A stretch of DNA of 64,000 nucleotides from a virus. Positions 1 to 61,627 of this stretch are shown here, in pieces. Position numbers and translations under genes: made by a program. Position 1 is the stretch's first letter, and every line of letters starts with the position of its first letter. The stretch is from the IMG/VR virus record IMGVR_UViG_3300048912_000204. One strand, given 5' to 3'. Below the pieces are notes generated by a model that worked only from the letters and a program-made list of their open reading frames with translations, had not been told where the DNA came from and made no database searches.

Positions 1-701
1 GTCACGGAACCGGCGGGCAGGACCAGACCGGTCGCGTTGACGGTCCCGTTGACGGTGACGTTGCCGTTGACGGTGCCGCCCGTGGTCCGGTCCAGGAACT
101 TGGACGTGGCCCAGGACCGGTCACCGTGCGGGTCGGCTCCTCCGGCATGCGCGGCAACGGCTGCTGCACCCGCTCCGGCGACCTCTGCGCCGATGTTGGC
201 CGGGGTGAGCGGGTCACTTCCCCCGGTGGCGTGAGAGGACTTGTGAGGCAGCGCGGTGACGGTTGCGGAGCCGTCCACGGTGAGGTTCCCGGTGACCCGC
301 AGGCTGCCGTTGACGGTGCCTCCGCTGACGTTGCCGCCCCCGGTCGGCCCGACGGGGATGAGCGCGCCCATGCTGACGGACGGGGTGTTCTTGGTGAGGG
401 AGATGTGGAACGGATCGGGGGTGGGGACCCCGCTGAAGTTCATCTCGACCTTGTACGTCCAGCCGGTGGGGCTGATACCGGTTGCGTCCGGTGCAAGGAG
501 GACGGCGCTGTAGTTGCCGTCGGCATCGCAGTCTGCGGCGACCGCTCCGATGATCTGCGTGCTGGTGGCCGTGGCCACGATCCACGGTGCGTCAGGAGTG
601 AAGACGACCCGCCCGGTGAGGGGCTGCGGGGTGCCTCCGGTTCCGGGGCGCGTGGCCCGTCCGGTCACGGTCACGGTGGCTAAGCCAGGGGGTAACGCCA
701 T
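1..701 (-). CDS. Virion fibre/minor tail-like protein, truncated at the window edge
   Basis: Manual translation from ATG 701 (GGAG RBS): MALPPGLATVTVTGRATRPG...GWTYKVEMNF...HKSSHATGGSDPLTP. The N-terminal domain and the HxxSHAxGGSD motif are shared with 823..2292. Absent from the ORF track because it runs off the edge. Confidence 0.7.
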   Translation of the reverse strand, partial: MALPPGLATVTVTGRATRPGTGGTPQPLTGRVVFTPDAPWIVATATSTQIIGAVAADCDADGNYSAVLLAPDATGISPTGWTYKVEMNFSGVPTPDPFHISLTKNTPSVSMGALIPVGPTGGGNVSGGTVNGSLRVTGNLTVDGSATVTALPHKSSHATGGSDPLTPANIGAEVAGAGAAAVAAHAGGADPHGDRSWATSKFLDRTTGGTVNGNVTVNGTVNATGLVLPAGSV

Positions 702-822
702 CTGACACTCCTGCACTTATGACGCGTTGTTGTTTGAATGCCTCGATTGTCTCACGCACGGATCATGCCGGGTAGGTCCGGAGAAACGGCGCAGCCCCGG
801 CGGAAGGGCCGGGGCTGCGGGT

Positions 823-2292
823 CTAGGCGGGTGCGATCACGGTGACGGTGCCGCTGCTCCCCTTGTATTTCAAGGCGCCGCTCTCGACGTACATCACGCC
901 GCCCGATGTGGGGTTCGTGCTGGGCGGGGTCGTGCAGTTGTTGATCAGCATGGCCGCACCGTTGGCCCCGCCGAACGACCCACCCGAACCAAGCCGGAGG
1001 TTCTGGAGCTGACTTGTTCCGCTGCTCGTGAAGGTAGTGCCCGTCAAGGCGCCGGTAAGCGTGCCTCCGGTCAGTGGCAGGAGCGCGGCCAGAGCAGCGG
1101 TGAGCCCCGTTACCTGGGCCTGTGTGAGGGTAACGGCGTCGGACCCTCCGGCGGCGTGAGAGGCCGCGTGTGCTGCCGGTACCTGGGTGAGCGTGACGAT
1201 CGTCCCGTCGGACTGCCGGACCTTCGCCACGCCTCCTTCCGCGTAGAGGACGACGCCTCCGGCCGGATTGGAGGTCGGCACGGTGGTTGCGTTGGTCAGG
1301 CCCAGCAGACCGCCCGCTCCTCCGCCGAAGGATGACGTGGTCGCACCGAACTGCATGCCGACCACCGCGTACGCGGTGCCCTGTGCAACCAGGTTGCCGT
1401 TGGGTCCGATGCGGGTTGTGACGACGGAGGACGGGTTTTTCCACTCGAAGCTGTTGTTGACGCCGTCGCCGACGGTGGTCACTTTGCCGGTGAGCGTGCC
1501 GCCGGACAGGGGCAGCAGTGCCGCCAGAGCGGAGAGCAGCCCGGTGATCTGGGCCTGGGTGAGCGTTACCGGGTCGGATCCACCCTCGGCGTGGCTCGCG
1601 GCGTGTGCGGTAGGCGTACGGGCGTTCACGGTCGACGGGTCGTCCGACTTGAGGGCGATGGCCGAGCCTGCTCCGGCGGCACCCAGCGGGGGCTGAGGGC
1701 CGGTGGCTCCCGTGGGTCCTTGCGGCCCGATGTCTCCTTGCGGTCCGGTCGCTCCGGTTGCGCCGGTCGGGCCCGTCAGTCCCGTCGGTCCCGTGGCACC
1801 CGTGGGTCCTGCCGGGCCCTGCACGCCTTGCAAACCCTGGGGCCCAGTCGCTCCGGTCGCTCCGGTCGCTCCGACGGGGCCCTGAGGACCGGCCGGGCCC
1901 TGAGGTCCGATCGGCCCGGGGACGGTGATGTAGGAGCCGGTGGGGGTGTCCGCTGCGGGAGCAACCTCGGCCAGCTTGACGACCGGTGCAGCAGCGGGCA
2001 GGAGCAGCGGGTAGGTGCGGCCCTTCGCGCCGATCCACGACTCGGTGACGGTGTAGGCCCAGCCGGTGGGGTTGATACCTGCGGAGTCGCTGGCCAGGAC
2101 GGTGACCTCTGCGACCCCGCCCGCGACGGCGTCGAAGACCATGACGGCGCTGCCGATGATGAGGTTGTTGCCGTCGGCGTCGGTGATGAGCGGGGGCGCC
2201 GGAGTCAGCGTGATGGACCCGTACATCGGTTTGCCGTCGGGGTGAAAGCAGCGGGCTTGTATGGTTACGGTCTGTAAGTCGGGTAAGGCCAT
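823..2292 (-). CDS. Collagen-like fibre/minor tail protein
   Basis: Start MALPDLQTV at 2292 with AGGAG RBS. Gly-X-Y run ([22 protein letters not shown]...) at about 1690-1915 and two HAASHAxGGSDxVTLTQAQ repeats. Confidence 0.8.
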
Positions 2293-2321
2293 GTTCTCTC
2301 CTGCTGTGCCCCCGGATACGA

Positions 2322-2358
2322 CGAAAGCCCCGCAGTCCCGAAGGACTGGGGGCTTTCG
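2322..2358 (-). terminator. Intrinsic terminator
   Basis: Minus strand CGAAAGCCCCCAGTCC-TTCG-GGACTGCGGGGCTTTCG: UUCG-capped stem downstream of 2425..2817. Confidence 0.65.
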
Positions 2359-3923: not shown

Positions 3924-4763
3924 TCAGGCGGTGACGACAATCCCCTGCCGTTTGGCCCAAGCCTGGAGTGAGCGGTATGCGGCCAGCACGTCGGCATCCG
4001 TCACAGCGGGGACCGGTACAGGGACCGGGGCGGGCTGCGGGGCGTTGAAGTGGGGGACGGTCACGTCGCCCTGCTTGGACAGCAGCCACTGCATGTCGGC
4101 CTTGGAGATGTACGCGCGGCCCTGGATGCCCCAGCCGGTCCCCCAGGAGTTCGTGATGCCGTAGCGGCTCCGCTCGACGTCGAGTTCATCGATCACGTAC
4201 TCGTGGCCCCCCAGAACCTCTCCGGTGCGGTCGACGGTGAGCGTGCCGTCCGCTGCGGGGTCCTCCATGGAAGCCATCCACTGGGTTCCTGCCATGACCG
4301 GGCCGGACTGCAAGGCGGCGTCCAGGGAGGCCATGGTGAAGACGTGGGAGTACGTGTCGGCCTGGCCGAGGGCCTTGAGCGTCTTGGCTGCGGAGACGCC
4401 GTCGGAGCCGGTGTCGGTGGGCTTGTAGGTGCCCGCGAAGCTGTCAAGGCGGGTGTTCAGTTCGTAACAGAGGACGGCGAGGTCTTCGTCCACGGTGTGC
4501 GTTCCGGCGGTGAAGACGCCCCGGGTGGCGTCGGCCTGCGCGGTGGTCACGAGGATGCTGGTGGCTCCGGTGCGGCCTAAGGAGTCGGTGCCGATGAGTC
4601 CGGCCGCCGCGTTGCCGGTGCAGCTTCCTACCTGGCCCTGGTCGAAGACGGGGGCGCGACGGGTCCAACGGATGGACTTGATGGCGCCCTTGGGGAGAGG
4701 GCCGACGGAGTAGGCGAGGGAGCGGGGGTCGTGATTGACCTTGCGGCCGTAGGTACGGGACAT
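3924..4763 (-). CDS. Papain-like (C1A) cysteine peptidase
   Basis: Catalytic motifs QGQVGSCTG (Gln/Cys48), GGHEY (His) and ITNSWGTGWG (Asn). Pro-rich linker PAPVPVPVP precedes a short C-terminal helix. Confidence 0.85.
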   Translation of the reverse strand: MSRTYGRKVNHDPRSLAYSVGPLPKGAIKSIRWTRRAPVFDQGQVGSCTGNAAAGLIGTDSLGRTGATSILVTTAQADATRGVFTAGTHTVDEDLAVLCYELNTRLDSFAGTYKPTDTGSDGVSAAKTLKALGQADTYSHVFTMASLDAALQSGPVMAGTQWMASMEDPAADGTLTVDRTGEVLGGHEYVIDELDVERSRYGITNSWGTGWGIQGRAYISKADMQWLLSKQGDVTVPHFNAPQPAPVPVPVPAVTDADVLAAYRSLQAWAKRQGIVVTA

Positions 4764-6903: not shown

Positions 6904-7293
6904 CTAGCAGGCGATCAGATGGGTGGTGGGTTGGAACGTGGAGGTCCGCTCGACCTGGTAGCCGTCACCGGTCGAATAGACGACCGTCTTCACGCCTGCC
7001 CGCTCGATAGCCGTCCAGCAGCGTTGGCACGGGCGGGAGAGGGCCAGGGAACCGGTCGGGGACAGGCGGACCACGTACAGGGTCGCTCCGGCGGCGTGTG
7101 TGCGCCGTAAGGCGGCTGCTTCGGCGTGGACGGAGGATCCGAGGTAGTTGATCGTCGGGGGGTTGCGGTGCTTGTTCGGGGAGCCCGCGAGGACCGCCCC
7201 GCCGCGTACGACCAGTGAGCCGTGCTTAAAAGGGCAGTCAGAGAGCGCTGCATTACGGGCTGCAAGTTCAAGAAACCGCAGGTGGCGACTCAT
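6904..7293 (-). CDS. Cytidine/deoxycytidylate deaminase family protein
   Basis: HAE (VHAEAAAL) and PCxxC (RPCQRC) zinc-binding motifs; HGSLVV segment. Confidence 0.85.
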   Translation of the reverse strand: MSRHLRFLELAARNAALSDCPFKHGSLVVRGGAVLAGSPNKHRNPPTINYLGSSVHAEAAALRRTHAAGATLYVVRLSPTGSLALSRPCQRCWTAIERAGVKTVVYSTGDGYQVERTSTFQPTTHLIAC

Positions 7294-12239: not shown

Positions 12240-12272
12240 GCGGTCTCCCGGGCGCGGCGGTCCCCCTGATAG

Positions 12273-12311
12273 CCCAGTAGGGATCTCCGGCGTCGGGAGA
12301 TCCCTACTGGG
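12273..12311. terminator. 16-bp perfect hairpin between genes
   Basis: CCCAGTAGGGATCTCC...GGAGATCCCTACTGGG. Confidence 0.5.
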
Positions 12312-12361
12312 GGCTGAGGGTTTTCGGTGAGTGGTTGGGGGCCATGCGCGCTCCGGGAGGG

Positions 12362-12649
12362 TTAGTCGTCGGTGCTGCTGGCCGTGGACGGCTTGACGTA
12401 GATGTAGACGTTGTAGGTGCCGTCGTGCTGCTTGAGGGCGGAGGTCGCGACCTCGCCGTGGTACTGGACCCAGGGGCCGCGCTTGCCTGCGCGGATCTGG
12501 TGGGCCTTGAGGCGGGCGCCGTACTTCTCATGTCCTTCGGAGTACAGCACCTTGACGCCGGGGGTCTTGCGGGCGATGGCCATGGCCTCTTGCGGGGTGC
12601 GGACGGCCTTGGTCGGGGAGACTCCCGTGCTGCGGGTTGGCGTAGTCAT
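12362..12649 (-). CDS. Basic hypothetical protein (95 aa)
   Basis: MTTPTRST start downstream of a TGATAGACT -10-like element at about 12693-12701. Confidence 0.6.
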   Translation of the reverse strand: MTTPTRSTGVSPTKAVRTPQEAMAIARKTPGVKVLYSEGHEKYGARLKAHQIRAGKRGPWVQYHGEVATSALKQHDGTYNVYIYVKPSTASSTDD

Positions 12650-17254: not shown

Positions 17255-17262
17255 GAGCGGTC

Positions 17263-50500: not shown

Positions 50501-52642
50501 CCACAGGTTCCCGTCCTCGTCCTTCATCAGCTTGCTGCCGTGGGAACCGAGCGTCTTGCCGGTGTACGTCAGCTTGCCGACCGGCTTGAGAACCTTGCCG
50601 TCGTCGGCCGCGTCGACCTTCTTGACCGGAGCGGACGGAGCCTCGGCGGCCTTCTTGGTCGCGGCGGCGTCGGCCGCGTCACCGTGGTGCTGGACCAGGT
50701 TCTTGAACTTGTTGACGGCCCAGTCCTTGGGCTCGTCCTTGTCCTGCTCCGCCTTGAGGGCCTTCGCAGCCGCCTGACCGGCCGCCTGGTGGTCCTTGTG
50801 GTCCCCGGTGATCTCGGCGATGGACGACAGCGCGTTCGCCTTCATGGCGGGGCTGTCCGCCTTGTCGGCGAGTTCCGCGACCTTCTTGTAGTTCTCGATC
50901 GCCTTGTCTTTGTCCCCGGCCGTCAGGGCGTCGTCAGCGGCGTTGAACGCCTGCCCGGCCTGCTGGAGCGCCTGCGACTTCTCCGACTCGGCCTTGGCGG
51001 CAGCAGTGGCCTGCTCGCCGTGCTGGGTCGCCTTGGCCATGTGGCCCTGGGCGGCCTCCTTGTGGTCCGCCGCCAGGCCCTGGAAGCCCGCGTCCAAGGC
51101 GGCCTTCTCCGCGTTGGAGTGCAGCAGGGCCGCTTCCAGGTGCTTGGCGTTCAGCGTGTCGTCGCTGGCCTTGGCGTAGGTCGCCTCGTGCACCTCGGAC
51201 GTCTTGGCGTGCGCCTTCTTGCCGTGGGCGTCGTACGCCTGCATCTTCGCGAGCGCTTCGGCGTTCTTCTTGTCGACCTCGGCGGCCTTGGCCTTGTACG
51301 AGGCGGCGTTCGCCTTGTGGTCCTCGGCCTCGTCGTGCAGACCGGCGGCCTTCGCAGCCTGGTGCGCCTTCTCGTACTTGGCGGCGGCGTCCTTGAACGC
51401 GGTCGACGCCGAACCCGAGTCCCCCAGCGCGTGGCCCTTGTTGGCGGCCTCGTCGGCGGCCTTGGCGTGCTTGGCGATCTCGGCCTGGGCCGCCTTCTGC
51501 TTGGCCTCGTGCTCGTCGTGCTGCTTCTGGAGCCCGGCCGCGATCTCCGCGTGCTTGGCCTCGTGCTGCTTGTGCTCGTTGACGGACTCGTCGTTGCCGA
51601 TCTGCCCGTGCGCGTTCGCAGCCTGCCCGTGCGCCTGGGCGGCCTGGTTGTGCGCGTGCGCCTGCGCGGCCAGCGGGGTGTCACCCTCCTCGCTGGCAAT
51701 CGACGCGCTCTTGGACTTCTTGTAGGCGCCGTCCGACATGGTGGCGGCGGCCTTGTCCAGTGAGTCGTGCGTCTTCTGCTGGTTCTCGGCGATCTTCTCG
51801 TGCTTGGCCACCGCTCCCGCGTGGGCCTCGCCGACGAACTTGTTCCCGGCCTCCTCGTTGGCGTGCTGCGCGTTCAGGTGCGCGGCAGCAGCCTTCGTGT
51901 GCAGCTCGGCGGCCTGCTTCGGCGTGTGGTTGCCGCCCTTGATCGAGGCGGTGAGTTCGTTCGCCTCGGCCGTGAGCTTGGTCGCCTTGGCCTTGGCGTC
52001 CGCCAGCTTCTTGGCCGCCGCAGCCTTCTCGGCCTCCAGCGCCTTGGCCGCGTCCTCCTTCGCACCCTGCTCCAGCTTCGTCGCCTTCGAGGCGTGGATC
52101 GCGGAGTGCGCGGAGTGCGTGAGGACACCCGACTTCAGGCCGTCCTTGCCCATGCCCTGGAAGTGGTGGGCGGCGTCGGCGTGCTGAGTCGCCGCGACCT
52201 TGTGGGCCGCCGCCAGAACGGCCTTGGAAGCGCCGGACTCTTCGAGCTTGTGCACCATGTTGGTGGCGCGCTCGGCCTTCTGGACGGCTGCCTTCGCCGC
52301 TTCCTGCTTGGCCGCGACACCCGCCGCGCCCTTCTTGACCTCGGCCTCCCAGTCCGCCTTGGAGGCGTACCGGTTGACGGCCTTGAAGGAGATCTTGCCG
52401 TCGGCGCCCTTGACGAAGTGGCCGGTGGTGTGACCGCCGGAGATGTGGCCGTGCTGACGGGCGAGACCGCCGCCGGACAGACCACGGGAGGGGATCAGGG
52501 GGTTGATCAAGATCCATCCGTGGCGGTATCTAAATGCAAGGGCGCCAGCGGGATTTTTCGAGAAATCTAAGGTGTGAGCGTCAACAACCCTCACATTCTT
52601 AGGTAACACCCCGACGAACGCTAACTCATATTCCACGTTCAC
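47549..52642 (-). CDS. 1697-aa multidomain head-associated protein: Ala/Lys/His-rich stalk, PI3/4-kinase/HipA-like kinase domain, helical repeats, C-terminal VIP2-like ADP-ribosyltransferase
   Basis: Kinase: WLAK...DYATGNQDSHNGQW...IDQG (about 49800-50560). ART: TVRK, YGSTA, HEQEILLPRG (about 47550-48070). Confidence 0.75.
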   Translation of the reverse strand: MNVEYELAFVGVLPKNVRVVDAHTLDFSKNPAGALAFRYRHGWILINPLIPSRGLSGGGLARQHGHISGGHTTGHFVKGADGKISFKAVNRYASKADWEAEVKKGAAGVAAKQEAAKAAVQKAERATNMVHKLEESGASKAVLAAAHKVAATQHADAAHHFQGMGKDGLKSGVLTHSAHSAIHASKATKLEQGAKEDAAKALEAEKAAAAKKLADAKAKATKLTAEANELTASIKGGNHTPKQAAELHTKAAAAHLNAQHANEEAGNKFVGEAHAGAVAKHEKIAENQQKTHDSLDKAAATMSDGAYKKSKSASIASEEGDTPLAAQAHAHNQAAQAHGQAANAHGQIGNDESVNEHKQHEAKHAEIAAGLQKQHDEHEAKQKAAQAEIAKHAKAADEAANKGHALGDSGSASTAFKDAAAKYEKAHQAAKAAGLHDEAEDHKANAASYKAKAAEVDKKNAEALAKMQAYDAHGKKAHAKTSEVHEATYAKASDDTLNAKHLEAALLHSNAEKAALDAGFQGLAADHKEAAQGHMAKATQHGEQATAAAKAESEKSQALQQAGQAFNAADDALTAGDKDKAIENYKKVAELADKADSPAMKANALSSIAEITGDHKDHQAAGQAAAKALKAEQDKDEPKDWAVNKFKNLVQHHGDAADAAATKKAAEAPSAPVKKVDAADDGKVLKPVGKLTYTGKTLGSHGSKLMKDEDGNLWLAKTDEYSRSLDPAVAALHRKVGLPTPVFVKTKDGHLQGMIPGAEDAFPGYKFNADMAAKMPPEDIMKMLQHQVLDYATGNQDSHNGQWIKSPSTGLMSIDQGQAFKYTVGASNGDPYKGDGGKSKGDPLTTYGPNAHSAVYPALWQAAKEGKIQLPDPSGDNEFAKTIKAIQDMPDEEFKRLFAPYAKQALASGHKFPGGVDTEEKFLDKIVAHKNSLGKDFQKLYDDLPDKGKQGAAPAQKAAKAADAPEAGSGGSAEKDAALKAIAEMMKIDDNDWNETDYKVAKSKALAAGATKAEITSVVKDPDAFLANSPSAPSPSAKDSGLSAKDAVIKTMAEKMASGEEWEPGEYTTLKQKAIDLGADPKEVIAAIQNPKAFLDKVSKSSAPTPAPQGLSEKEKALKALAAHEHDDNTADWNHQTSEKLENAAINAGATPDEIHAAYYKSDETLKALKAKESAAAPAEKKAPEADASAPAAPSGPKTDPFKPKAKWSKVEHGVKDADGNTHMSQGVAGPKNLVVHKALGGSGWSVTQADGMKMGSHKFKTQKEAKLAAEWMAKNYGGKNFTKEEFAKWKNENPQAFADFKQGVINKHWNTEAQAELDKQNNPATAAAAAAPSGTGSLSAKQAALKALAEHNLPQNSDHWDYDKSIDLKEAAEKAGASTLDIAQAQNSPKTYLKSQGLSPDVVTAPEVKYTGLGITKKANAVLLKKLYDQAHGPNATPAQIALYKQAKKDWDAHYSSPFDPASFDPAKAVPKGMTAAEAGDEDAVLAHTKTQFAGAHAAGYTAATNGVDIGNGWKPKGKASSAVYTYTGHEHSEINGQLRGHFDYDGTMITPPVGATGGDWDDTIKHMDDAFRQAPPLAHDLVTVRKMGTNGQFPDFPPPMDPGNVYQDLAYGSTAKDKNAFSGNVWMEVRIPKGHKVIDANYATGSKFSHEQEILLPRGTKYRVVSDQASPPDGTKPYSGKRYIVVEIVPTDEWD

Positions 52643-53195: not shown

Positions 53196-55088
53196 TCAGA
53201 GGCACTTTTTGCCCTTCTGACGCCGCTTCTTCTGCGCCTTGATCGCCGCATCCGCCAGGTAGCGCTTCGGATACTTCGTGGTCAGGCTGTTGACTGTGAG
53301 CCGTGCCCCGTCCTGGGAACTCCCGGTGGGTACGGTGACCTGCTCCGATGCCATGGGCTGGGACAGGTTGACGTTGTTGCGGAGGTTGTCCTTGATCTCT
53401 TCCTGCTGGGCCTCGTAGTGGTCCAGCAGCCGGACCTGGGTCGGGGTTAGCGGCCGACCGGCCTTCTTGTCCGCGAGGGCCTGACGGGTGGCGTCGGAGA
53501 TCAGCTTCTGCTTGGCCTTGGCCTTCGCCGCCTTCTCCTTCGCCGCCTGCTTCTGCGCCCGGAGCTTGGCCACCTCCGCCTTCTTCTTGGCCATCTCCTT
53601 GGCGTGCGCGGCCTTCTTGGCGGCAGCCGCCTTGGCCCGCGCCGCCCGCTTGGCCTCGGCCTCGTGGTGCTTCTTGGCGGAAGCGGCCTTCTTCGATGCC
53701 TTCTTGGCGTCGGCGGTGGCCTTGTTCTTGTACGCCTGGGCGATGGCCGCCTTGGTGGCGTCGGTGTGACCGGTCATGTCCTTGATCTCCTGCGCAGACT
53801 TGTCTTTCTGCGAGGGACCGACGGGGTTGCCGTTCTTGTCGACGGGGACCCAGTTGTGTTTCCAGCCGACGGCGCCCGGGGGGAGCTGGTGCTTGCCGTG
53901 CGGGTTGTCCTTCGGCTTCTTGTCCTTGGCCTTCGGCTTGTGCGCCTTCTCCGGCCGGGGGCCGGAGGATCCCGCGATATCCGCCGGGACGGCCAGGTCG
54001 ATCGCAGAGGAGCCGTCCAGGACGGCTCGCAGGAACGTCATCGGCTGGGACAACGTCACCTCCTCCCCCGGGTCGGATGCTGCGTGGGTAACGGTGACCA
54101 CGGGGAACTCTCCTTCGTGTGAGACGTGTGTGACGTGCAGGCGGGTGCCGCGCGGCAGGACGGTTTCGTCTCCCCGGACGGGGATGATCGGGGCGCCCTT
54201 GCGGCCTTGGATGCGGAAGAGAACCTTTTTGCCGGTCTCGTGTCCGCGTTCGTGCATGTAGTACTCCGCCACGTCCCGGGAGAACGCGGCGGATCCGTAG
54301 CCCTTGTCGTGCAGGACGGAGCCGGGCGTGAGCGCGGCGATCTGGTCGTCGGTGAGGGAGGCCCCGCGCCACAGGTCGGCGTCCCGGCTCAGGGACGCCT
54401 TGGCGGCCACCGAGTCGAGTCCCTTGTTACGGGCCTCCTCCTCGGCGTCCAGGGCTTCCCCGTTGCGCAGCTTGCGGTTGATCCGCAGCGTGTCCTTGTC
54501 GAAGGCCACGTAGTCGTTGACGGCCGCGTGGTCACTCTTGCCCAGAACGGCTTCCCGCAGATGGGTGTTGCCGCCCGGCAGGGAGTCTGTGTCGGCGTCC
54601 GATACGGCCTTGCCGTGCACGGCGACGTTGGCCCAACTGCCCTTGTGGTCAACGGTCGGGTAGGGGCGGTCTTCGCCCTCTTCCTCTTCGGCCATGGCCA
54701 GCAGAGCCTTCATGGCGTCCATGGCCGACCACTTGCCGTCCGGGGTGCGGGGCTCGTCGGGGTTGAAGTTCGCCAGCTTGACCGTACGGCCCTTGTTCGG
54801 TGTCGCGTGGGCCCTGGCCTTGGAGGCTTCCCAGTCGGCCAGGGCGGCGGATGCGGCAGCGCGTACTTCGGGGCGGACGTTGCCGCGCCCGGAGGCCCAG
54901 TTTTTGATGGTGCCGAGGGCCGTGGCGATGGCCCGGGACTTGTCCATGCCCCGCTTGGTCATCAGGCTGTGCGCGATGTTTTGCACGTACGGCGGAAGGC
55001 TCAGGGAGCGGTCCCCGAAGAGACCGGGTCCTCCCGGCTTCCCGAGCGGGTGCGGTGTGACCGCTAACGCCGCTGTCTCGGCACTCAT
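53196..55088 (-). CDS. 630-aa head-associated protein with VIP2-like ADP-ribosyltransferase domain
   Basis: INRKLR...LWRG...GYGSAA...GDETVLPRGTRL (about 54120-54540); FNPDEPRTPDGKW and GWKHNWVPV motifs; Lys/Ala-rich C-terminus. Confidence 0.75.
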   Translation of the reverse strand: MSAETAALAVTPHPLGKPGGPGLFGDRSLSLPPYVQNIAHSLMTKRGMDKSRAIATALGTIKNWASGRGNVRPEVRAAASAALADWEASKARAHATPNKGRTVKLANFNPDEPRTPDGKWSAMDAMKALLAMAEEEEGEDRPYPTVDHKGSWANVAVHGKAVSDADTDSLPGGNTHLREAVLGKSDHAAVNDYVAFDKDTLRINRKLRNGEALDAEEEARNKGLDSVAAKASLSRDADLWRGASLTDDQIAALTPGSVLHDKGYGSAAFSRDVAEYYMHERGHETGKKVLFRIQGRKGAPIIPVRGDETVLPRGTRLHVTHVSHEGEFPVVTVTHAASDPGEEVTLSQPMTFLRAVLDGSSAIDLAVPADIAGSSGPRPEKAHKPKAKDKKPKDNPHGKHQLPPGAVGWKHNWVPVDKNGNPVGPSQKDKSAQEIKDMTGHTDATKAAIAQAYKNKATADAKKASKKAASAKKHHEAEAKRAARAKAAAAKKAAHAKEMAKKKAEVAKLRAQKQAAKEKAAKAKAKQKLISDATRQALADKKAGRPLTPTQVRLLDHYEAQQEEIKDNLRNNVNLSQPMASEQVTVPTGSSQDGARLTVNSLTTKYPKRYLADAAIKAQKKRRQKGKKCL

Positions 55089-55115: not shown

Positions 55116-55439
55116 TCAGTGGAATGCGGCGATCTTGATGGTCGCCACGGACGCGGTGACCTTGACGGTGTCTCCGGTGACGGAGTACGGGAAGTCCGCC
55201 GGGGCCAGGAGGTAGAACGTGCTCGCGGAGAGCGTGTAGACCTTGTCGGGCACGACCAGGCCGGTCGGCATGGTCACGTTGGACTTGACGGTGAGCGTGC
55301 CCCCGGCGGTGCCGCCATCGACGTACAGCCAGGTCTGGCCGTCGTTCTGGAAGGTGTTGCCGGTGATGTCGGCGACGGCGGTGGCGATGGTCGCCAGGCC
55401 GACGGCCGAAGCAGAAACGACGTTTAACGCAGTAGCCAT
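55116..55439 (-). CDS. Small beta-rich virion structural protein (107 aa)
   Basis: Thr/Val/Ala-rich, head module position, GGGAG RBS. Confidence 0.6.
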   Translation of the reverse strand: MATALNVVSASAVGLATIATAVADITGNTFQNDGQTWLYVDGGTAGGTLTVKSNVTMPTGLVVPDKVYTLSASTFYLLAPADFPYSVTGDTVKVTASVATIKIAAFH

Positions 55440-55531: not shown

Positions 55532-56152
55532 CTATTTCCTTCTCAGATGTTCCGGAAGGGCCGTCACCACTGGTTTTCCTTCGTAGGCGGGAAGGGGGTA
55601 GCAGCGGCAGCGCGGGTGTCTTCCTCCGGGGTGCAGTCCTTCCGGGGGTGTGCTCGCGGAGTAGTTCTTTCCGATAAGCCACCGACAGTCGGGGGTGGTG
55701 TTGTCGTCCAGAATTCCGCCCCAGCCGAGAGTGTCGCTGGATGTGGTGGTCTGCATGTTCACGGAGCCCTTGGCGGCGGCTATCCGGCGGGCGCACGCCT
55801 GTTGGTGCTGGGCGAACAGAGCCTTCTCCCGGGCGAGGGCTTTGCCCAGGTCAGGGGCGTCTGCGAGGCGTCGGACGGCTGCGGCGAGGTAGGCGGCCCG
55901 GTAGCGCATGTTCTCCCGGCGGGCTGCGGCGACGGGGTCCGTGCCTTTTGCGAGGGCCTTCTTACCGGGCTTGTACTTCATCGCGGCGAGGATCCCGAGG
56001 ACGAGCTTTTTCGGGGTTTTCAGCACAGCGGAAATAGCCTGTATTGCGGCGATGAGAGGAGGTCCCGCCAATAACACGGCGAGAACAGCCGCGATCTCGG
56101 CATCGTGCTGAGAAGGGGCCTTTTGGGCTATTTGCTGGTCTTGCTCGTCCAT
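55532..56152 (-). CDS. MuF-like minor head protein
   Basis: WGGILDDNTTPDC...HPGGRHPRCRC motif; follows the portal. Confidence 0.82.
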   Translation of the reverse strand: MDEQDQQIAQKAPSQHDAEIAAVLAVLLAGPPLIAAIQAISAVLKTPKKLVLGILAAMKYKPGKKALAKGTDPVAAARRENMRYRAAYLAAAVRRLADAPDLGKALAREKALFAQHQQACARRIAAAKGSVNMQTTTSSDTLGWGGILDDNTTPDCRWLIGKNYSASTPPEGLHPGGRHPRCRCYPLPAYEGKPVVTALPEHLRRK

Positions 56153-56240: not shown

Positions 56241-57821
56241 TTATTTGCCCTTCCCGGCACCCTGACTACCGGTGGAACCCTTTGCCGCAGCGGCCTTCTG
56301 CTGGACCATCTTCGCGGCCTTGTTGATGCTCGCCCCGGCCTTCGCCAGCTCCGCCTTGCGCTGCACGTTCGCAGCCCCCACGGCCGCGCCCGACTGCGGG
56401 CCGCCCTGGGCCGCGAGCTGCTTCTGCGCGTCCAGACCCGTGCGCTTGGTCTCCAGCTCCAGGTCCATGCGCTCGTCAATGCGGTCGGCGAGCTGCTTGA
56501 ACTCCTGGTTGACCTCTTCCATCGGCATGTCGAGGTAGGTCCCCATCATGCGGGTCAGCTCCGTCATGAACGCCTGGGGGACGCGGAGTTCGGTCGGGGT
56601 CGTGCCGAACGCCGTCAGCAGCTCCTTGACGACGGTCAGGTCACCCTCGGACAGCGGCCCGAACTCGAACGTCGGGCAGACCGCGCCGGGGCCGAAGTTG
56701 TACATGACCAGGTCGGCGATCACGTAGTTCGTGATCGATTCGGCCAGCTCCCGCGCGGTGCCCGTCAGGGACTGGAGGAAGAAGTCGCTCTGGTCCTTGG
56801 ACAGGGCGTACGAACCGCCGGGGCTGTCGGGCAGGTTGGTGAACCCGGCCAGCACGGACGCGGCCATCTGGTTGTCCAGGTAGTCGATGAACTCCTTGAA
56901 CAGGGCGGCGGCCCCGGTGCCCAGCTCCAGCGTGCTGATGTCCGTCTCGGTCGACGTGCCCAGCACACCGCCGTTCTTCAGGTGCCGCAGCGCCTGCGCG
57001 TACTGCCGGGCCCGGGTCTCGTCCTCGGCCCGCACGACGTACCGGCCGGTGGCGTTGGCCTCCAGGAACGTCGCCCAGAGGAACAGCACCTTCTGCTTCT
57101 TGTCGTGGAGCCAGTAGATCAGCTCCATGTCGGAGTGACCGCGCGCGGCGTTGATGTGCTGGTTGTTCAGGTGCACCCAGGCGTACTGGGCGGGGATGTC
57201 CACCCAGATGTCCGGCCAGATCTCCCCGCCGACCGACACCGGGCGCTGCCGGAAGCCCCGGAACGCGCCGGACTTGGGGTCGCGGGCGATGGCCGTGGTG
57301 GGTGAGGGGCGGAACGCCAGCCGGTCGTAGACGACCTTGCCGTCCTTGTCGGTGAAGACCTTCTCGAAGCAGGCCTTGCGGTAGGTACGCGCGGAGAGAG
57401 CCTGCGCGATGACCAGGCGCATCGGGGTCTTCATGCCGCCCTGGTTCGCCGGGGTCGTCAGCGCCTTGGTGACGAACTCGGCCTCGCCCTTGTCCCCCGG
57501 TCCGGCGACGATCTTCCACGGCGCGGAGCGGATCGGGAGGGTGAGCACCTGCTGGATCGTGCGGGCCTTGCCGTCCTTGGCGAGCATTTCGTCAAGGGAC
57601 AGCGACCCCCATTCGTCCTCGTCCAGGAGAATGCGGCCGGGGATACCGGACCACGATGCGACATAAGCGTCGGTTGTGGTGAAAAGGCTACCGGCCTCCG
57701 TGTCAAGAACGACGTCGGGAGCCCCCTTCACCGTCTTGGTCGGTGCGGCCTTTTCAGGCGCGTTACCCGACGCGTAAAAGGGTGCCGATAACGGCACATC
57801 GCCAGCCTGCTCTGCGCCCAC
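56241..57821 (-). CDS. Portal protein (DUF935/Mu gp29-like)
   Basis: Follows terL; YRKACFEKVF, GHSDMELIYW, GSYALSKDQSDFF motifs. Confidence 0.88.
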   Translation of the reverse strand: MGAEQAGDVPLSAPFYASGNAPEKAAPTKTVKGAPDVVLDTEAGSLFTTTDAYVASWSGIPGRILLDEDEWGSLSLDEMLAKDGKARTIQQVLTLPIRSAPWKIVAGPGDKGEAEFVTKALTTPANQGGMKTPMRLVIAQALSARTYRKACFEKVFTDKDGKVVYDRLAFRPSPTTAIARDPKSGAFRGFRQRPVSVGGEIWPDIWVDIPAQYAWVHLNNQHINAARGHSDMELIYWLHDKKQKVLFLWATFLEANATGRYVVRAEDETRARQYAQALRHLKNGGVLGTSTETDISTLELGTGAAALFKEFIDYLDNQMAASVLAGFTNLPDSPGGSYALSKDQSDFFLQSLTGTARELAESITNYVIADLVMYNFGPGAVCPTFEFGPLSEGDLTVVKELLTAFGTTPTELRVPQAFMTELTRMMGTYLDMPMEEVNQEFKQLADRIDERMDLELETKRTGLDAQKQLAAQGGPQSGAAVGAANVQRKAELAKAGASINKAAKMVQQKAAAAKGSTGSQGAGKGK

Positions 57822-57879: not shown

Positions 57880-59586
57880 CTACCAGCCCGCGAGTTCCAT
57901 ATCCGAGGAGGAATCCCACTTCTCCACGACGGTCTCGGTATCGACGGGCGGGGCGTACCTCTCGTCCGGGTCCTTCCATCCGGAGTCCTTCATCTCCTCG
58001 GCGCTCTGCACGACCGAGGGGAGCCAGAAGGCGTGGATGATGGCGTCCGCGCGGTCGGTGGACCGGCCCAGACGCTTCTTGATGTCATCCTTCTTTTCGA
58101 TCTTGTACTTCGGGGTACCGGGCTGCGTGTCGAAGCGCGGGCAGGTCAGCTCCGCCAGCAGCTTTTCGTCCCTCGGGAACGCGATCGTCGCCCCGCCCCG
58201 GCGCGCCGGATTCAACAGCTCCCGCAGGTTCCACCAGGCCGCCGCACGGTCGTTGACGAACCCCATCTTCTTGGTGGTGTCCTTGCGCCCGGAGTTCGCC
58301 GCCGCGATGAACGCGTACGTGTCCTGAGAGTCGCGGCGCAGCTTGGCCACCACGCCGGAACCCACACCGATGCCGTCCACGATGTACTTCGCGTTCGTCG
58401 GGGCGCCGTGCTTGACCGCGATCTGCTGAAGGTCGTCGGCCGTGGTCAACGGGTCCTTGGAGGGGAACGCCAGCAGCTCGCGGACCACGTCGCCCTGACG
58501 GACCGCAGCCGTCGTCTCGTCCTCGCCGCCGTCGGAGATGTCCGCGCCGATGACGATGTCACCGGGCTGCTGCTGCTTCGGCTCGACCAGGCAGACCGGC
58601 TCCTCGGTGTCCGGGTCGATGATGTACGTGCCGTCCCGCCAGCGCTCCCAGCGGGCCATGGCAGCCTCGGCCCAGGCCAGCGGGATGACGCCCTCGGAGG
58701 ACGTCTCGGGGAACAGGGCCCGCACCTTGGACATGAACAGGGAACTGTCGGCGCCCCAGCCGACCATCGACTCGTAGACCCAGGTCGGGCCGACCAGCGT
58801 CTTCTGGAGCGTCGGGGAGACCTCTTCGGTGGAGAAGGGGATGCCCTCCGCCTTCATGTACTCCACCAGCTTGGGATACCGGGAGCATGCCTCCTCGGTC
58901 ATCAGCGGGCTGCGTAAGGCGTCGATGCGGATCTTGTTCCACTTCTCGCCGAGCGGAGACTCCGGGTTGCACACGGAGCGGAAGTGGGAGCCCGGGTCGG
59001 TGGGGTTCCCGATGGCCAGCACGCGGGAGGACTCGTTGGTGACCAGGGAGTCGACGGCGTCCCAGATGGACCGGTCGACGCCGCACGCCTCATCGATCAC
59101 GACCAAGATCTTTTCGGCGTGGAAACCCTGGAACGCGGAGTCTTCCTTGTCCGGGGGCTTCTGGCCGATACCGACCAGCTCGCCGTTGATCTTCCACGAG
59201 GGGATCGGGGAGGACAGGATCTGACCGGGGATGGGGAAGCCGCGTTCGGCCGCGAGGTTGTGGGCGCGCTGGATGTAGCGCCACAGGATGGAGGCCACCT
59301 GGCGGGCTGTGGGCGCCGTGGTGACGAGGAAGACCTCGTTCATGGGGATGGTGGCGATCCACCAGGCTGCGAGCCGGGATGCGAGGTGGGACTTGCCTGC
59401 GGCGTGACAGGACTGGACGGCTGTGAATCGGTGGTCCCGGACGGATTCGCAGATCTGTGTCTGCATGGACCACATGTCCTCGCCGAGGACGTCGTTAACC
59501 CAGCGGGCGGGATTGCGGTGGTCGTCCTTTTTGGCCTGTAACTCGTAGAGAACGGCAAGCCTGTCCGCCCATGCGCTACCTGCCAC
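57880..59586 (-). CDS. terL: Terminase large subunit
   Basis: Walker A SCHAAGKS, Walker B VVIDEA, IGNP coupling motif, nuclease IGADIS...DGIGVG...STDRADA. Confidence 0.92.
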   Translation of the reverse strand: MAGSAWADRLAVLYELQAKKDDHRNPARWVNDVLGEDMWSMQTQICESVRDHRFTAVQSCHAAGKSHLASRLAAWWIATIPMNEVFLVTTAPTARQVASILWRYIQRAHNLAAERGFPIPGQILSSPIPSWKINGELVGIGQKPPDKEDSAFQGFHAEKILVVIDEACGVDRSIWDAVDSLVTNESSRVLAIGNPTDPGSHFRSVCNPESPLGEKWNKIRIDALRSPLMTEEACSRYPKLVEYMKAEGIPFSTEEVSPTLQKTLVGPTWVYESMVGWGADSSLFMSKVRALFPETSSEGVIPLAWAEAAMARWERWRDGTYIIDPDTEEPVCLVEPKQQQPGDIVIGADISDGGEDETTAAVRQGDVVRELLAFPSKDPLTTADDLQQIAVKHGAPTNAKYIVDGIGVGSGVVAKLRRDSQDTYAFIAAANSGRKDTTKKMGFVNDRAAAWWNLRELLNPARRGGATIAFPRDEKLLAELTCPRFDTQPGTPKYKIEKKDDIKKRLGRSTDRADAIIHAFWLPSVVQSAEEMKDSGWKDPDERYAPPVDTETVVEKWDSSSDMELAGW

Positions 59587-59663
59587 ACCCGCCCCTTTTC
59601 CCCGCTAAATCCGACCCTTGTACACGCATTGTACGGAAAGATCCAGCGGGGAAAACAGGTGAG

Positions 59664-60032
59664 CTATTTGGATCCGGTGCCGCCCCCGTATCCGTGCTCT
59701 TTCACGAATGCTTCGACGGCTTCATTGAGGGATTCTCCGGCCTTGTCGGTGAGCGTTCCGACGTACCGGCTGAACGTCATCAGTTCGTGCCCGGTCTTCA
59801 CCCGCTCCGTGGTGACGATGTAGGGCCACTCGTCGCCGTCGGGGTCATGCCGGTCCAGCCAGTGCTGGACGAACGACCGGGTGTCCGGTCCGCCCTTCTC
59901 GGCCAGCTCCGGGGCGAACGTGTTCAGCAGCCGCAGGTGAATGCTCTTGGTGTCCCCGAAGCCCTGGTCCAGGACCACGATCAGGGTGTCTCCGTCGTGC
60001 GTGGCGGTGACCCGGGCCCGCCGGTCCCACAT
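59664..60032 (-). CDS. Thermonuclease (SNase-like) family nuclease
   Basis: DGDT, RLLNTFAPE and TFSRY motifs. Confidence 0.78.
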   Translation of the reverse strand: MWDRRARVTATHDGDTLIVVLDQGFGDTKSIHLRLLNTFAPELAEKGGPDTRSFVQHWLDRHDPDGDEWPYIVTTERVKTGHELMTFSRYVGTLTDKAGESLNEAVEAFVKEHGYGGGTGSK

Positions 60033-60377
60033 TCAGTACTCTCCGGCCGAGGTCTCAGGCATCGCGGCCAGGTCTTCCTTCATGTGGCGCTTCATCCGCG
60101 ACCGGGCGTCCTCGCGCAGCCGCGTCTTGAGCCGGTGGTCCCGCAGCTCCTCCTTGAGCGAGGCGCGGGCCGCGAACGACCGGGCCTGGGACTCGAAGAA
60201 GTCCGCGAAGGCGCCGACGACCGCGCCGATGGCGTCCAGGGCGTCGATGAGCAGGCACGTCGGCGTCCAGCGCAGGGACGGCAGATCGGTGCTCTCGATC
60301 TTCCCCGCCACGTACACGGCGGTGAGAGCGTCGTCCTCGGAGTCGAAGTGTTCGTCAGACATGGGATCCTCCGTCAC
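60033..60377 (-). CDS. Hypothetical protein
   Basis: Start overlaps the phosphoesterase stop; helical content. Confidence 0.6.
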   Translation of the reverse strand: MTEDPMSDEHFDSEDDALTAVYVAGKIESTDLPSLRWTPTCLLIDALDAIGAVVGAFADFFESQARSFAARASLKEELRDHRLKTRLREDARSRMKRHMKEDLAAMPETSAGEY

Positions 60378-61627
60378 AGAATTTCAAGGTCGGACCAGCC
60401 GTCCGAACCCACGGAAAACACCAGGAGCCCCGCACGGGAGTCGTCCCCGCTGGTGTTCGAGTACCAGGAAGACCCGTTGTCGAGGGCCGGAGCCTGGAGC
60501 CAGAGCTTCCCGGACCCCACCTCTTCCGCCCGGAAATGGTGGAAATGCCCGGTCAGGAGGATGCGGGCGGCAGCGACCGGCTGCTCCCCGAACGTCTGGC
60601 CGCGCCACCAGTCCACGATCTTGCCGGGGCTGCGGACCTGGTGGCCGTGCGAGAGACCGACGACGGTCCCGGCGACGTCCACGGACACGGTCTCCTGCCA
60701 CTTCTCCGGCAGGACGAACCGCACGTGGCCGTAGGCGTCGGGGTTGCAGTTGAACGCGTCGGCGACCTGCTGCATCGTCTCGATGCCCCAGTCATCGCTG
60801 GGCGGGCCGACCATCTTCCCGTTCACCCGGTGCTGGGCGTGGTTGGAGGCGGCGACCGCTGCGGTGACGGAGTCGAACTGCCGGGCGAGCCGGTTGAGCC
60901 CGTCGAAGGTCAGGCGCCTGTGCAGGCGGACCATCTCGGTCATCGTCAGGTCGTTCGTGCCGAGCTGCGCGGCCACGTTCTGCTGGCCCTCGATGCAGTC
61001 CCCTGCGTCCATCCAGAATGCGGAGTCGACCGGGCGGCCCACGGCCTTGAGGTCGCGGACGTGGTCCTGGAGCCGGTCGAACTTCTCGGCTACGCGGGCG
61101 ATCAGCTCGGGGGTGCCGCCCCGGCGGTCGACCTTGCCGGTCTGGGGGTCGGCGTAGGCGACCACGAGGCCCCGGGAGGCCGCTGCGAGGCGCCTGGGGG
61201 TCCTCTTGACCCTCATGGCGTCCCGGACCATCGTCGCGACGTCCTCGGCCCCGTAGCCCGCCATGGTGGCCGGTGCGACACGGAACTTCAGGCGCCAGAC
61301 GGCCTGGGTGACGGCGTCCTCGCCCTCGGCCGCGCGGGTCCAGGCGGCCGGGTCGTACTTGGCCTCGGCAAGCTGGACGGTCCAGCCCTCGGGAACGGTG
61401 AGCCCCAGCTCCTCGACGGCAGCCTTCCAGGCGTTCTGGTCCTGCGGTCCGGTCGTGGTGGGGGCGGTGACGACGGTCATGGAGCCGTCGGCACCGAAAG
61501 CGACGCCGGGCTGCCACTCGCGGCCGACGGGGGCCGTGGGGTTCACTCCGGCCCTGGACGGTGCTGCCTGGCCCTGGGAGAGCCGCAGCAGGTCGTCCAG
61601 GTCGCGGGATAACCCGCTGCCGCTCAC
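60374..61627 (-). CDS. Calcineurin-like metallophosphoesterase
   Basis: ADPQ, AGDCIEG, SNH, SHGH and TGHFHH motifs. Confidence 0.85.
   Translation of the reverse strand: MSGSGLSRDLDDLLRLSQGQAAPSRAGVNPTAPVGREWQPGVAFGADGSMTVVTAPTTTGPQDQNAWKAAVEELGLTVPEGWTVQLAEAKYDPAAWTRAAEGEDAVTQAVWRLKFRVAPATMAGYGAEDVATMVRDAMRVKRTPRRLAAASRGLVVAYADPQTGKVDRRGGTPELIARVAEKFDRLQDHVRDLKAVGRPVDSAFWMDAGDCIEGQQNVAAQLGTNDLTMTEMVRLHRRLTFDGLNRLARQFDSVTAAVAASNHAQHRVNGKMVGPPSDDWGIETMQQVADAFNCNPDAYGHVRFVLPEKWQETVSVDVAGTVVGLSHGHQVRSPGKIVDWWRGQTFGEQPVAAARILLTGHFHHFRAEEVGSGKLWLQAPALDNGSSWYSNTSGDDSRAGLLVFSVGSDGWSDLEIL

Follow-up and report, generated by a model that had tools for sequence, protein, structure and literature searches.

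Why would a phage with a GC-rich genome place the rare leucine codon TTA near the starts of its virion and lysis genes, and largely keep it out of the rest? The question is raised by a 64,000-nt stretch of viral DNA (IMG/VR record IMGVR_UViG_3300048912_000204; 66% GC), referred to here as the window, whose minus strand holds nearly all genes. A first-pass annotation, made from the letters alone, had counted about 43 in-frame TTA codons in 25 genes, nearly all of them packaging, virion or lysis genes, and had proposed that particle assembly and lysis wait for the UUA-reading tRNA encoded by bldA in a differentiating Streptomyces host, or that UUA acts as a late translational switch. Our own gene calls give the same figure, 43 in-frame TTA codons in 25 genes. 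The codon-specific excess of TTA in late genes, clearest in frame, stood up to analysis, while the Streptomyces host, the dependence on bldA and the coupling to differentiation are retained below as conditional steps.

Genes were called with a caller based on codon usage and on GC content at third codon positions (GC3), their starts were curated against relatives and public gene calls, and functions were assigned via PHROGs and Pfam. The resulting layout is of the siphovirus type. Read from right to left, the window begins with an exonuclease/phosphoesterase-like gene, an HNH gene and the genes for the large terminase (terL), the portal and a MuF- or protease-like protein, followed by head-module proteins of 107, 630 and 1697 aa (the last with an ADP-ribosyltransferase domain) and by an opposite-strand primase/polymerase. 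Then come a beta-helix fibre, a 532-aa head protein, a scaffold and the major capsid protein (MCP); an HNH gene, the connector, the adaptor, the major tail protein, the chaperone and the tape measure; and four minor tail proteins, two fibres and a lysis cassette that includes a holin. The replication block (SNF2 helicase, exonuclease, ThyX, Sak4-like ATPase and polA) follows, and the left end holds small genes, a dCMP deaminase, a papain-like peptidase and two more fibres.

The nearest isolates are Streptomyces phages of the BI cluster, with 41-43% protein identity in terL and 72-74% nucleotide identity in the major tail protein gene. About 20 closer relatives are present in IMG/VR (MCP identity 85-97%, nucleotide identity ~74-82%), and the phage itself has been found only in metagenomes, from root, rhizosphere and soil in many studies. 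One relative contig, G001, is collinear with the window, is 124,939 bp long and is rated 97% complete, which indicates that the window covers about half of a ~125-kb genome. Two public contigs, L047 and L048, are 100% identical to window positions 53073-64000 and extend 8.5 kb and 7.0 kb, respectively, past its right end.

Genes with virion, packaging or lysis functions (the late class) carry 39 TTA codons among 892 leucine codons, distributed over 22 of 34 genes, compared with 4 among 609 in 3 of the 40 other genes. The TTA share of leucine codons is 4.4% in the late class versus 0.66% in the other (odds ratio, OR, 6.9; Fisher p = 5.7e-6 per codon and p = 2.2e-7 per gene). The three non-late genes are the papain-like peptidase, which was counted as other rather than late, the dCMP deaminase, and a gene at 9602-10201 with two TTAs. 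Most per-gene counts of the first-pass annotation were reproduced: two in terL, one each in the portal, the 107-aa and 630-aa proteins, MCP and the holin, two each in the adaptor and the left-end fibres, three in the 1697-aa protein, five in the tape measure, and seven in the four minor tail genes together. Its statement that replication genes are free of TTA also agrees with our calls, as the block at 10212-21845 has none in ~3,700 codons. Two of its claims had to be corrected: the deaminase, said to lack TTA, has one (codon 62, at 7110), and the TTA at 37390 that had been credited to the connector is not an in-frame codon of that gene.

The same contrast was found in G001, where TTA is present in 21 of 36 late genes versus 1 of 150 others (p = 4e-17) and makes up 33 of 989 late versus 1 of 1734 other leucine codons (OR 60, p = 5e-14). 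TTA tracks function and not location: within the late block it is absent from the HNH genes and from the antisense primase, and outside the main late block of G001 it is carried by two fibres, a GH25 lysozyme, a papain-like amidase and a RyR-domain gene. The two tail fibres lie 20 kb from the late block, and each has TTA at codons 3 and 7, matching the fibres of the window. The GH25 lysozyme (2 TTAs) and the papain-like C92 amidase (4 TTAs), at L030 13547-15094 and L031 18898-19398, have TTA-free early genes as neighbours; lysis-type enzymes bear the TTA tag regardless of their location in the genome. Early proteins expected to be abundant, one at the SSB position and one Sak4-like, have no TTA.

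Codons this close to gene starts depend on where the starts are placed. Several TTAs of longer open frames precede the true start of their gene and were not counted (13532, 15252, 17266, 2415, 2388 and 4802), and for the start-dependent 5' TTAs that were kept, protein alignments with relatives run through them. The alignment of terL to BI-cluster terminases starts at residue 8, so that codon 16 is coding; the phrog_22620 match of the minor tail protein at 26119..26757 spans residues 8-192, which supports its long start; and for the gene at 55532..56152 the start follows the public gene call and its orthologue in G001. It was noticeable that a public automatic call of terL (L047 13024-14610) starts 40 codons downstream of the homology-supported start and loses the TTA at codon 16, and that our own score-maximising caller likewise trimmed the TTA-bearing N-termini of the 1697-aa gene and of a lysis-region gene (23330-23713). 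Automatic annotation may hide 5' TTA tags in this way, by trimming rare-codon N-termini.

General AT-richness, or a compositionally distinct late module, was rejected as a cause because late and other genes are identical in GC3 (0.904 versus 0.905) and in the frequency of A at third positions (A3; 0.048 versus 0.049). A general rare-codon effect was also ruled out, as AGA, ATA, CTA and TTG have no significant late-versus-other contrast when counts are normalised by amino-acid family. In this family-normalised test TTA is the most significant of all synonymous codons, both in the window (40 of 898 late versus 4 of 609 other leucine codons, counted with an earlier start call for one gene; OR 7, p = 6e-6) and in G001. 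The comparison with CTA, which shares amino acid and third base with TTA, is particularly direct: TTA:CTA in G001 is 33:12 in late and 1:37 in other genes (p = 6e-12). In the late genes of the window the order is TTA (39), TTG (28), CTA (4), opposite both to the prediction from third-position bias and to the order in related phages. Testing TTA against CTA and TTG, a check proposed with the first-pass annotation, thus returned a contrast specific to TTA. By length of gene, in-frame TTA occurs at 0.98 per kb in late versus 0.15 per kb in other genes of the window, and the +2 frame has no late excess. The base immediately 3' of TTA is also non-random in the window and G001, being A in 6% and C in 42% of cases, versus 25% and 24% for other leucine codons.

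Late TTAs are concentrated at the beginnings of genes. In the window they account for 35% of leucine codons at codons 2-10, 17.5% at 11-30, 5-7% at 31-120 and 2.5% at 121-250, and for none of the 384 leucine codons past codon 250 (0 of 391 with the other start for one gene). TTA has its median position at codon 27, compared with 224 for other leucine codons (Mann-Whitney p = 3e-15), and the first 30 codons hold 56% of late TTAs versus 8% of other leucine codons. G001 has the same 5'-to-3' gradient. The concentration depends on reading frame, with 53% of in-frame TTAs within the first 30 codons versus 19% and 36% in the other two frames. At the same time, 17 of the 39 late TTAs in the window (44%), and about half of those in G001, lie at codons 31-250, where the late-versus-other contrast persists with A3 equal in both classes, and the enrichment is therefore not an effect of the initiation region. 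Generic AT-rich 5' ends, which the first-pass annotation had named first among the findings that would refute its proposal, fail because of this persistence and because the early genes of G001 are equally A-rich at codons 2-10 (A3 0.102 early versus 0.111 late), yet have TTA at 0 of 101 leucine codons there, compared with 9 of 32 in late genes.

The tags are conserved among relatives. Window TTAs correspond to TTA in 50% of aligned codons (127 of 253), compared with 10-30% retention for most other rare codons, CTA being next highest at 37%, and they align to leucine in 87% of cases, versus 75-80% for other leucine codons. The portal has its TTA at codon 11 in the window and at codon 6 in G001, and the position has thus turned over while the gene keeps a 5' TTA. 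Gene by gene, TTA is present in both the window and G001 for 15 genes, in neither for 34 and in only one for 10 (OR 24, p = 2e-6). All of the ~20 close relatives have TTA in late orthologues (~2-5% of leucine codons) and only 0-2 in other orthologues, and TTA positions, whose conservation had also been proposed as a check, are kept across them. Microdon, the nearest isolate (BI cluster), has 0 TTA in 15,400 codons and has CTN, Ile or Val codons at the homologous sites; more distant metagenomic relatives (30-39% MCP identity) have 0-8 TTAs without 5' bias. Inheritance of the pattern from the nearest isolates is thereby ruled out, and the tags are best seen as a derived trait maintained in this lineage. 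We conclude that in-frame, 5'-proximal TTA of late-function genes has in all likelihood been under selection across the lineage.

We therefore asked what might decode these codons. There are no tRNA genes inside the window, and tRNA-Leu(UAA), which the first-pass annotation had not seen there either, was not found in the window, in the 8.5-kb extension of the same genome, in G001 or in a second relative contig, G002; this points to a tRNA of the host as decoder. The sole tRNA in the sampled part of the window's own genome is a tRNA-Leu(CAA) of 83 nt with a long variable arm (L047 7135-7217, 1.27 kb beyond the window). The only tRNA of G001 (L029 1500-1575) and of G002 (L028 1500-1575) also has the anticodon CAA, in a 75-nt molecule with a short variable region and diverged stems. 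TTG, the codon cognate to this tRNA, is not enriched in late genes (late-versus-other OR 0.8-0.95), and among near-cognate anticodons CAA alone has been proposed to misread UUA with leucine still inserted (PMC4932002). Neighbours of the tRNA gene are of early type (L047 5039-8168) and include genes for an ADP-ribosylglycohydrolase, an Acb2/Tad1-like protein and an RNase H. The Acb2/Tad1-hairpin-like protein is likely to be an anti-CBASS/Thoeris sponge, and its gene has a TTA at codon 6. We rejected a phage-encoded alteration of UUA decoding or of bldA expression, as G001 has no match to the MiaA, TilS, AraC/AdpA-like or WhiB families. G001 does encode a 354-aa tyrosine recombinase (PF00589; L046 1462-2526, at ~18.3-19.4 kb of G001), which suggests that the lineage may be temperate; its longest frame has TTA at codon 2, and its true start is uncertain.

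The host is probably a Streptomyces, judging from similarity of the fibre, terL and tail genes, from habitat and from TTA usage. A 90-aa module in the fibre at 823..2292 matches only Streptomyces phages (42 of 42 records, with many host species), and the nearest matches to terL, the minor tail proteins and the major tail protein are also in Streptomyces phages. An internal pointer is that early genes avoid TTA relative to CTA and that TTA is biased to gene starts, a bias described as a hallmark of the streptomycete bldA regulon and not seen in other actinobacteria (PMC4255298). Direct searches for a host gave less: a genome scan with MCP returned only a 30%-identical Dietzia prophage, a protein search returned metagenomic relatives only, and the phage tRNA, compared by BLAST with 401 actinomycete genomes, reached at most ~80% identity and gave no host pointer.

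In Streptomyces, UUA is decoded by a single, scarce tRNA, that of bldA, which matures and is charged late. We regard it as an even call whether translation of the late genes is gated by the supply of a UUA decoder, the limiting tRNA most likely being that of host bldA. TTA codons would then constitute a translational control layer over the late regulon. Early and middle mRNAs (replication, nucleotide metabolism and most non-late functions), being poor in UUA, would be translatable in any host state, whereas TTA-bearing late mRNAs would have one to five UUAs to decode within the first 250 codons, over half of them in the first 30. When tRNA-Leu(UAA) is limiting, ribosomes would stall near the start, which would be cheap and could block further initiation, and the late proteins would be jointly held down while DNA replication proceeds; once the tRNA becomes available, assembly and lysis would follow. 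That such timing is tied to host physiology or development is a step we put forward tentatively, as somewhat less than an even prospect. Rather unlikely, though worth stating, is a further idea in which UUA serves as a dedicated "password" codon for the whole virion and lysis programme, the sense-codon equivalent of a stop-codon-recoding switch. The genome would in that case replicate and spread in growing hyphae, and particles and lysis would be released once a UUA decoder is available, either by maturation of the bldA tRNA at the onset of differentiation or by accumulated phage tRNA-Leu(CAA) reading UUA through a C-A mismatch.

Several observations weigh against late-gene gating through host bldA. 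Twelve of the 34 late genes have no TTA, and the marking is not exclusive, as the deaminase, the gene at 9602-10201 and the Acb2/Tad1-like gene carry TTA. The non-late TTAs number 4 in the window plus 4 among the 13 genes of the 8.5-kb extension, where three genes carry them, one being the Acb2/Tad1-like gene. Late genes also have more TTA in the +1 frame than other genes do (in the window 0.43 versus 0.10 per kb, or 15 versus 2 sites; in G001 0.70 versus 0.41 per kb), so that frame specificity is incomplete, and CTA is retained in relatives nearly as well as TTA (37% versus 50%). At codons 2-10 of window genes, A3 counted without TTA is 0.118 in late versus 0.072 in other genes, and this richness in other A-ending codons leaves some room for a ramp component. 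No isolate, CRISPR or prophage link connects the phage to a host, its sole chromosomal relative being the one at 30% identity in Dietzia, and a search for RNA sequencing runs containing the phage found none. The phage tRNA-Leu(CAA) could read UUA as leucine, and the host may therefore not be the only supplier of a decoder. Young hyphae are the usual target of phages, and the bldA tRNA is presumed scarce there, so that the adaptive logic is not obvious. Finally, whether bldA exerts strict temporal control is a matter of debate, and bldA mutants can express TTA genes (PMC13500790, PMC4932002).

The alternative that survives best, although we consider it unlikely, is a constant throttle or ramp, in which UUA is simply the slowest codon of the host and no developmental state is sensed. 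An early UUA would space ribosomes, cap output, or silence leaky or toxic late genes such as those for the holin, lysins and ADP-ribosyltransferases. The steep 5'-to-3' gradient fits a ramp, and late 5' ends of the window are mildly enriched in AGA, ATA and GCA, but in the family-normalised tests there is no late excess of AGA, ATA or CTA, and in G001 the 5' ends have similar A3 without TTA (0.111 late versus 0.102) and yet differ sharply in TTA (9 of 32 versus 0 of 101). Elsewhere, rare codons clustered at 5' ends are known to tune or delay synthesis (PMC6456624), and if the tyrosine recombinase of G001 reflects a temperate life, leak-proofing would pay. A throttle is harder to reconcile with the abundant early SSB-position and Sak4-like proteins, which use no TTA, and it would still need scarcity of the same tRNA, differing from gating only in whether the supply varies.

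A switch operated by the phage alone appears quite unlikely. Its own early-operon tRNA-Leu(CAA), rising with genome copy number, would read UUA by a third-position C-A mismatch and late translation would start as this tRNA accumulates, a sense-codon counterpart of phages that recode stop codons with suppressor tRNAs. C34 normally pairs only with G, and tRNA-Leu(CAA) is not known to read UUA efficiently. A single C-to-T change at position 34 would give a true UUA reader and has not happened in three diverged lineages; no TilS or MiaA match was found in G001; and TTG, at 3-5% of leucine codons genome-wide (48 in the window, 141 in G001), is reason enough to carry the tRNA. We keep this explanation as a live rival because CAA is named as the only near-cognate that would leave leucine unchanged on misreading UUA (PMC4932002). 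It is also the only anticodon carried in three lineages (the window's own genome, G001 and G002) despite diverged tRNA bodies, its gene sits among early-type genes, and the lack of late enrichment of TTG means that TTG use does not tie the tRNA to late genes.

Selection at the level of RNA is improbable. Here A/U-rich 5' ends would ease initiation, or UUA sites would bind a repressor or an RNase, TTA being the most A/T-rich leucine codon. This could account for the fall of GC3 at codons 2-10 to 0.71 in late versus 0.84 in other genes, for the commoner +1-frame TTA in late genes of the window and G001, and for the non-random base after TTA. It accounts poorly for late TTAs at codons 31-250, past the reach of initiation-structure effects, for a 5' enrichment that is much stronger in frame than in the other frames, and for the early genes of G001, which are equally A-rich at their 5' ends without TTA; nor was any motif common to TTA surroundings found in DNA or RNA.

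We give very little weight to titration, in which late mRNAs would soak up the bldA tRNA and so block host AdpA and TTA-dependent development, antibiotic and defence genes. Late transcripts are normally the most abundant ones of a phage, and the dozens of UUAs that they carry would suit such a role; host development and secondary metabolism do depend on UUA decoding (PMC4255298), but neither placement at gene starts nor restriction to late genes would be needed, early transcripts would act sooner, and a cell about to lyse gains little. An absence of function (mutational bias, a foreign late module, or start and annotation artefacts) is strongly disfavoured to the point of being negligible: some 5'-proximal TTAs do hinge on start choice, and public calls trim terL by 40 codons, but GC3 is identical in both classes, CTA is nearly absent while TTA is common, the signal holds using only codons beyond 30, TTA sites align to conserved leucine and to TTA in relatives, and the pattern recurs in ~20 diverged genomes.

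Gating of late translation by the UUA decoder can be placed beside known systems, of which the Streptomyces bldA/TTA regulon is the closest. It comprises ~2-3% of host genes, all non-essential, which depend on a single tRNA-Leu(UAA) (Lawlor, Leskiw, Chater; PMC4255298, PMC2000904). In both cases rare in-frame TTA codons mark a coherent dispensable or late set and are avoided by the genes needed first, TTAs cluster at gene starts, and a single cognate tRNA is required, although for the phage the requirement for bldA is conjectural. The two differ in that the marked set of the phage is its entire virion and lysis module, where 22 of 34 genes carry TTA and one gene may have as many as 5, whereas host TTAs usually occur in one regulator per pathway. 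Set against published host codon tables, the TTA density of the phage late genes (4.4% of leucine codons) appears far above host levels. As in bldA-type control, the in-frame TTAs stand in a genome that otherwise avoids the codon (4 of 609 leucine codons in other genes of the window, 1 of 1734 in those of G001), they are biased to gene starts, and they are absent from the first-needed replication block and present in the later programme, with the exceptions described above. The pattern is thus a variation on known bldA/TTA control, extended to the late genes of a phage lineage, and our literature search turned up no account of a phage late regulon tagged systematically with TTA near gene starts.

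As a rule, Streptomyces phages are stated to have no UUA at all (PMC10732093), and in phage CW39 nine genes with TTA encode HNH and hypothetical proteins (PMC13350457). A UUA-associated bypass has been described in the terminase of phiHau3, prophage StrepC.1 and a prophage of S. catenulae (Smith et al. 2013; Antonov et al. 2023, PMC10732093). The phiHau3 case resembles the present one in being a Streptomyces phage with a rare UUA in an essential late gene, proposed to sense the growth stage of the host. Its UUA, however, heads a frame-breaking insert of 7-10 nt, and it is without the tRNA that functional protein is proposed to arise; here the 43 TTAs are sense codons at conserved leucines, in intact frames and in ~25 genes instead of one. 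A phiHau3-type bypass was therefore rejected for these TTAs, all of which lie in uninterrupted frames aligned to leucine codons of relatives. As ordinary sense codons they need the tRNA, and the logic is opposite to that of phiHau3. The sole frame-breaking insert of the window (37390-37406) follows GTC and begins with AGA, not TTA.

Borges and colleagues are said to have described in 2022 crAss-like, Lak and other phages in which a phage suppressor tRNA reads a reassigned stop codon that is found mostly in late genes for structure and lysis. The likeness is that one codon is absent early and concentrated in structural and lysis genes, so that late translation would be conditional on one tRNA. 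In the present lineage the codon is a sense codon of the standard code and no cognate phage tRNA was found among the sequences searched; the conditional decoder would be that of the host, or possibly the near-cognate phage tRNA-Leu(CAA). An alternative code or stop recoding was rejected, since TTA aligns with leucine in 87% of cases and the frames are open under table 11. Phages of the T4 type encode tRNAs matched to codons that are over-used in their late genes. The present phage is similar in that a rare leucine codon is much commoner in late than in early genes and that it carries a leucine tRNA, but the CAA anticodon mismatches the enriched UUA, UUG is not late-enriched, and TTA is limited to the 5' parts of genes. 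A phage tRNA matched to late codon usage was accordingly rejected, only tRNA-Leu(CAA) having been found in the window's genome, G001 and G002. In papillomaviruses, rare codons in the late capsid genes reportedly restrict translation to differentiated keratinocytes, as Zhou and colleagues are said to have found in 1999. Synthesis of virion proteins would be tied to host differentiation by a match of codons and tRNA in both cases, as proposed here for the phage; the papillomavirus is a eukaryotic virus with a global bias over many codons, not a single 5' tag codon.

Avoidance of TTA has been considered in the literature to protect against phages and foreign DNA. This phage lineage does the reverse: its virion and lysis genes have TTA concentrated in their 5' ends and have retained it through extensive divergence. 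If the decoder is indeed host bldA, translation would link phage production in mycelial bacteria to the physiology of the host, which would bear on phage ecology in soil and roots and on outbreaks in antibiotic fermentations, and bldA-null or TTA-engineered strains might then serve to probe phage growth or to limit it. Under the "password" idea, with either decoder, one tRNA would set the timing of the lytic cycle in a 125-kb phage, and bldA would be a point of conflict between phage and host and not only a developmental regulator. Should gating be real, it would provide a clean natural example of a viral late programme controlled through a single codon. For methods, the lesson is that automatic gene callers can hide such signals when they trim rare-codon N-termini.

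Table. Window genes with in-frame TTA codons and two TTA-free regions used for comparison. Codon numbers are counted from the curated start; window positions of the codons are in parentheses.
Feature	Coordinates	Strand	Assignment	TTA codons	TTA in relatives and remarks
Tail fibre, runs off left window end	3..701	-	PHROG	3, 7 (695, 683)	Both kept in G001 fibre genes, codons 3 and 7
Tail fibre	823..2292	-	PHROG	3, 6 (2286, 2277)	Conserved
Papain-like peptidase, probably lysin-type, amid non-late genes	3924..4763	-	phrog_16701, E = 1e-49	62 (4580)	
dCMP deaminase, early-type, exception	6904..7293	-	phrog_174	62 (7110)	TTA in one relative, CTA in one
Function-unknown protein (first pass: terS-like)	9602..10201	-	phrog_3678; no Pfam match	5, 19 (10189, 10147)	Codon 5 kept in 2 of 2
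Replication/nucleotide-metabolism block	10212..21845	-	PHROG: polA, Sak4-like ATPase, MazG-like, ThyX, HNH, exonuclease, SNF2 helicase	none	
Holin	22508..22717	-	phrog_443	13 (22681)	
Lysis-region protein	23330..23713	-		18, 75 (23662, 23491)	Codon 18 kept in 2 of 2
Minor tail protein	26119..26757	-	phrog_22620	26, 29, 37 (26682, 26673, 26649)	Codon 26 kept in 2 of 2
Minor tail protein	26795..27556	-		8, 170 (27535, 27049)	
Minor tail protein	27549..28697	-	phrog_1887 tail protein; 44-46% identity to minor tail proteins of BI-cluster Streptomyces phages	79 (28463)	
Minor tail protein	28697..30037	-	phrog_11649	108 (29716)	
Tape measure protein, 1583 aa	30039..34790	-	PHROG	16, 62, 74, 87, 117 (34745, 34607, 34571, 34532, 34442)	Each kept in 3-7 of 10; remaining 1,466 codons TTA-free
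Tail assembly chaperone position	35177..35620	-		81 (35380)	TTA in 6 of 10
Major tail protein	35629..36222	-	Identity to BI-cluster genes	33 (36126)	TTA in 9 of 12
Head-tail adaptor	38031..38483	-	phrog_195	6, 27 (38468, 38405)	
Major capsid protein	39841..40755	-	phrog_1650, E = 2e-60	47 (40617)	TTA in 16 of 20; CTC in Microdon
532-aa head-module protein (first pass: protease/scaffold)	41286..42884	-		6, 115, 144, 189 (42869, 42542, 42455, 42320)	Kept in 15, 16, 5 and 8 of 16, in that order
Beta-helix fibre or tailspike	43032..44840	-	PHROG tail fibre/spike	51 (44690)	
Primase/polymerase within late block	45395..47218	+	phrog_5177, E = 6e-100	none in 607 codons	Internal control; G001 orthologue also TTA-free
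1697-aa head-module protein, C-terminal ADP-ribosyltransferase domain	47549..52642	-	PF03496	7, 13, 25 (52624, 52606, 52570)	G001 orthologue: codons 6, 33, 43
630-aa protein	53196..55088	-		8 (55067)	
107-aa protein	55116..55439	-		5 (55427)	TTA in 3 of 3
MuF-like or maturation-protease-like, 206-aa model	55532..56152	-	Weak PF04233; 34% identity to Microdon protein annotated as capsid maturation protease	27 (56074)	
Portal	56241..57821	-	phrog_113	11 (57791)	
Large terminase (terL)	57880..59586	-	phrog_2	16, 224 (59541, 58917)	Codon 16 kept in 2 of 2
Exonuclease/phosphoesterase-like, head of late block	60374..61627	-	phrog_284	6 (61612)	G001 orthologue: codon 12

For several function-unknown TTA-bearing proteins, searches of Pfam and PHROGs gave no informative match. 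Two stretches of the window, 4764-5387 and 5772-6637, have lower GC and no convincing gene, and the matching region of G001 has no called genes; the doubtful open reading frame at 6303-6638, with two TTAs, falls in one of these gene-poor stretches.

The connector gene (37039-37493, minus strand) is split by a 17-nt insert, AGACCTAGCATACAGTT, at 37390-37406, and is a single uninterrupted frame in 15 of 15 relatives. The insert is preceded by a GTC codon, has the rare AGA as its first codon and ends in GTT, so that the same tRNA-Val could serve take-off and landing. It is identical and ungapped in contigs from three sequencing runs, including at least one independent sample, and is a candidate for translational bypass.

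A motif of the form GAAATAGCYC or CAAATAGCYC occurs in 8 exact minus-strand copies, at 23765, 34912, 38910, 43000, 43013, 55529, 56125 and 59661; with one mismatch allowed and both strands counted there are 15 matches versus 5 expected. The copies lie mostly at gene boundaries of the late block, between genes and not at TTAs, and the motif could be a late promoter, a terminator or a processing signal.

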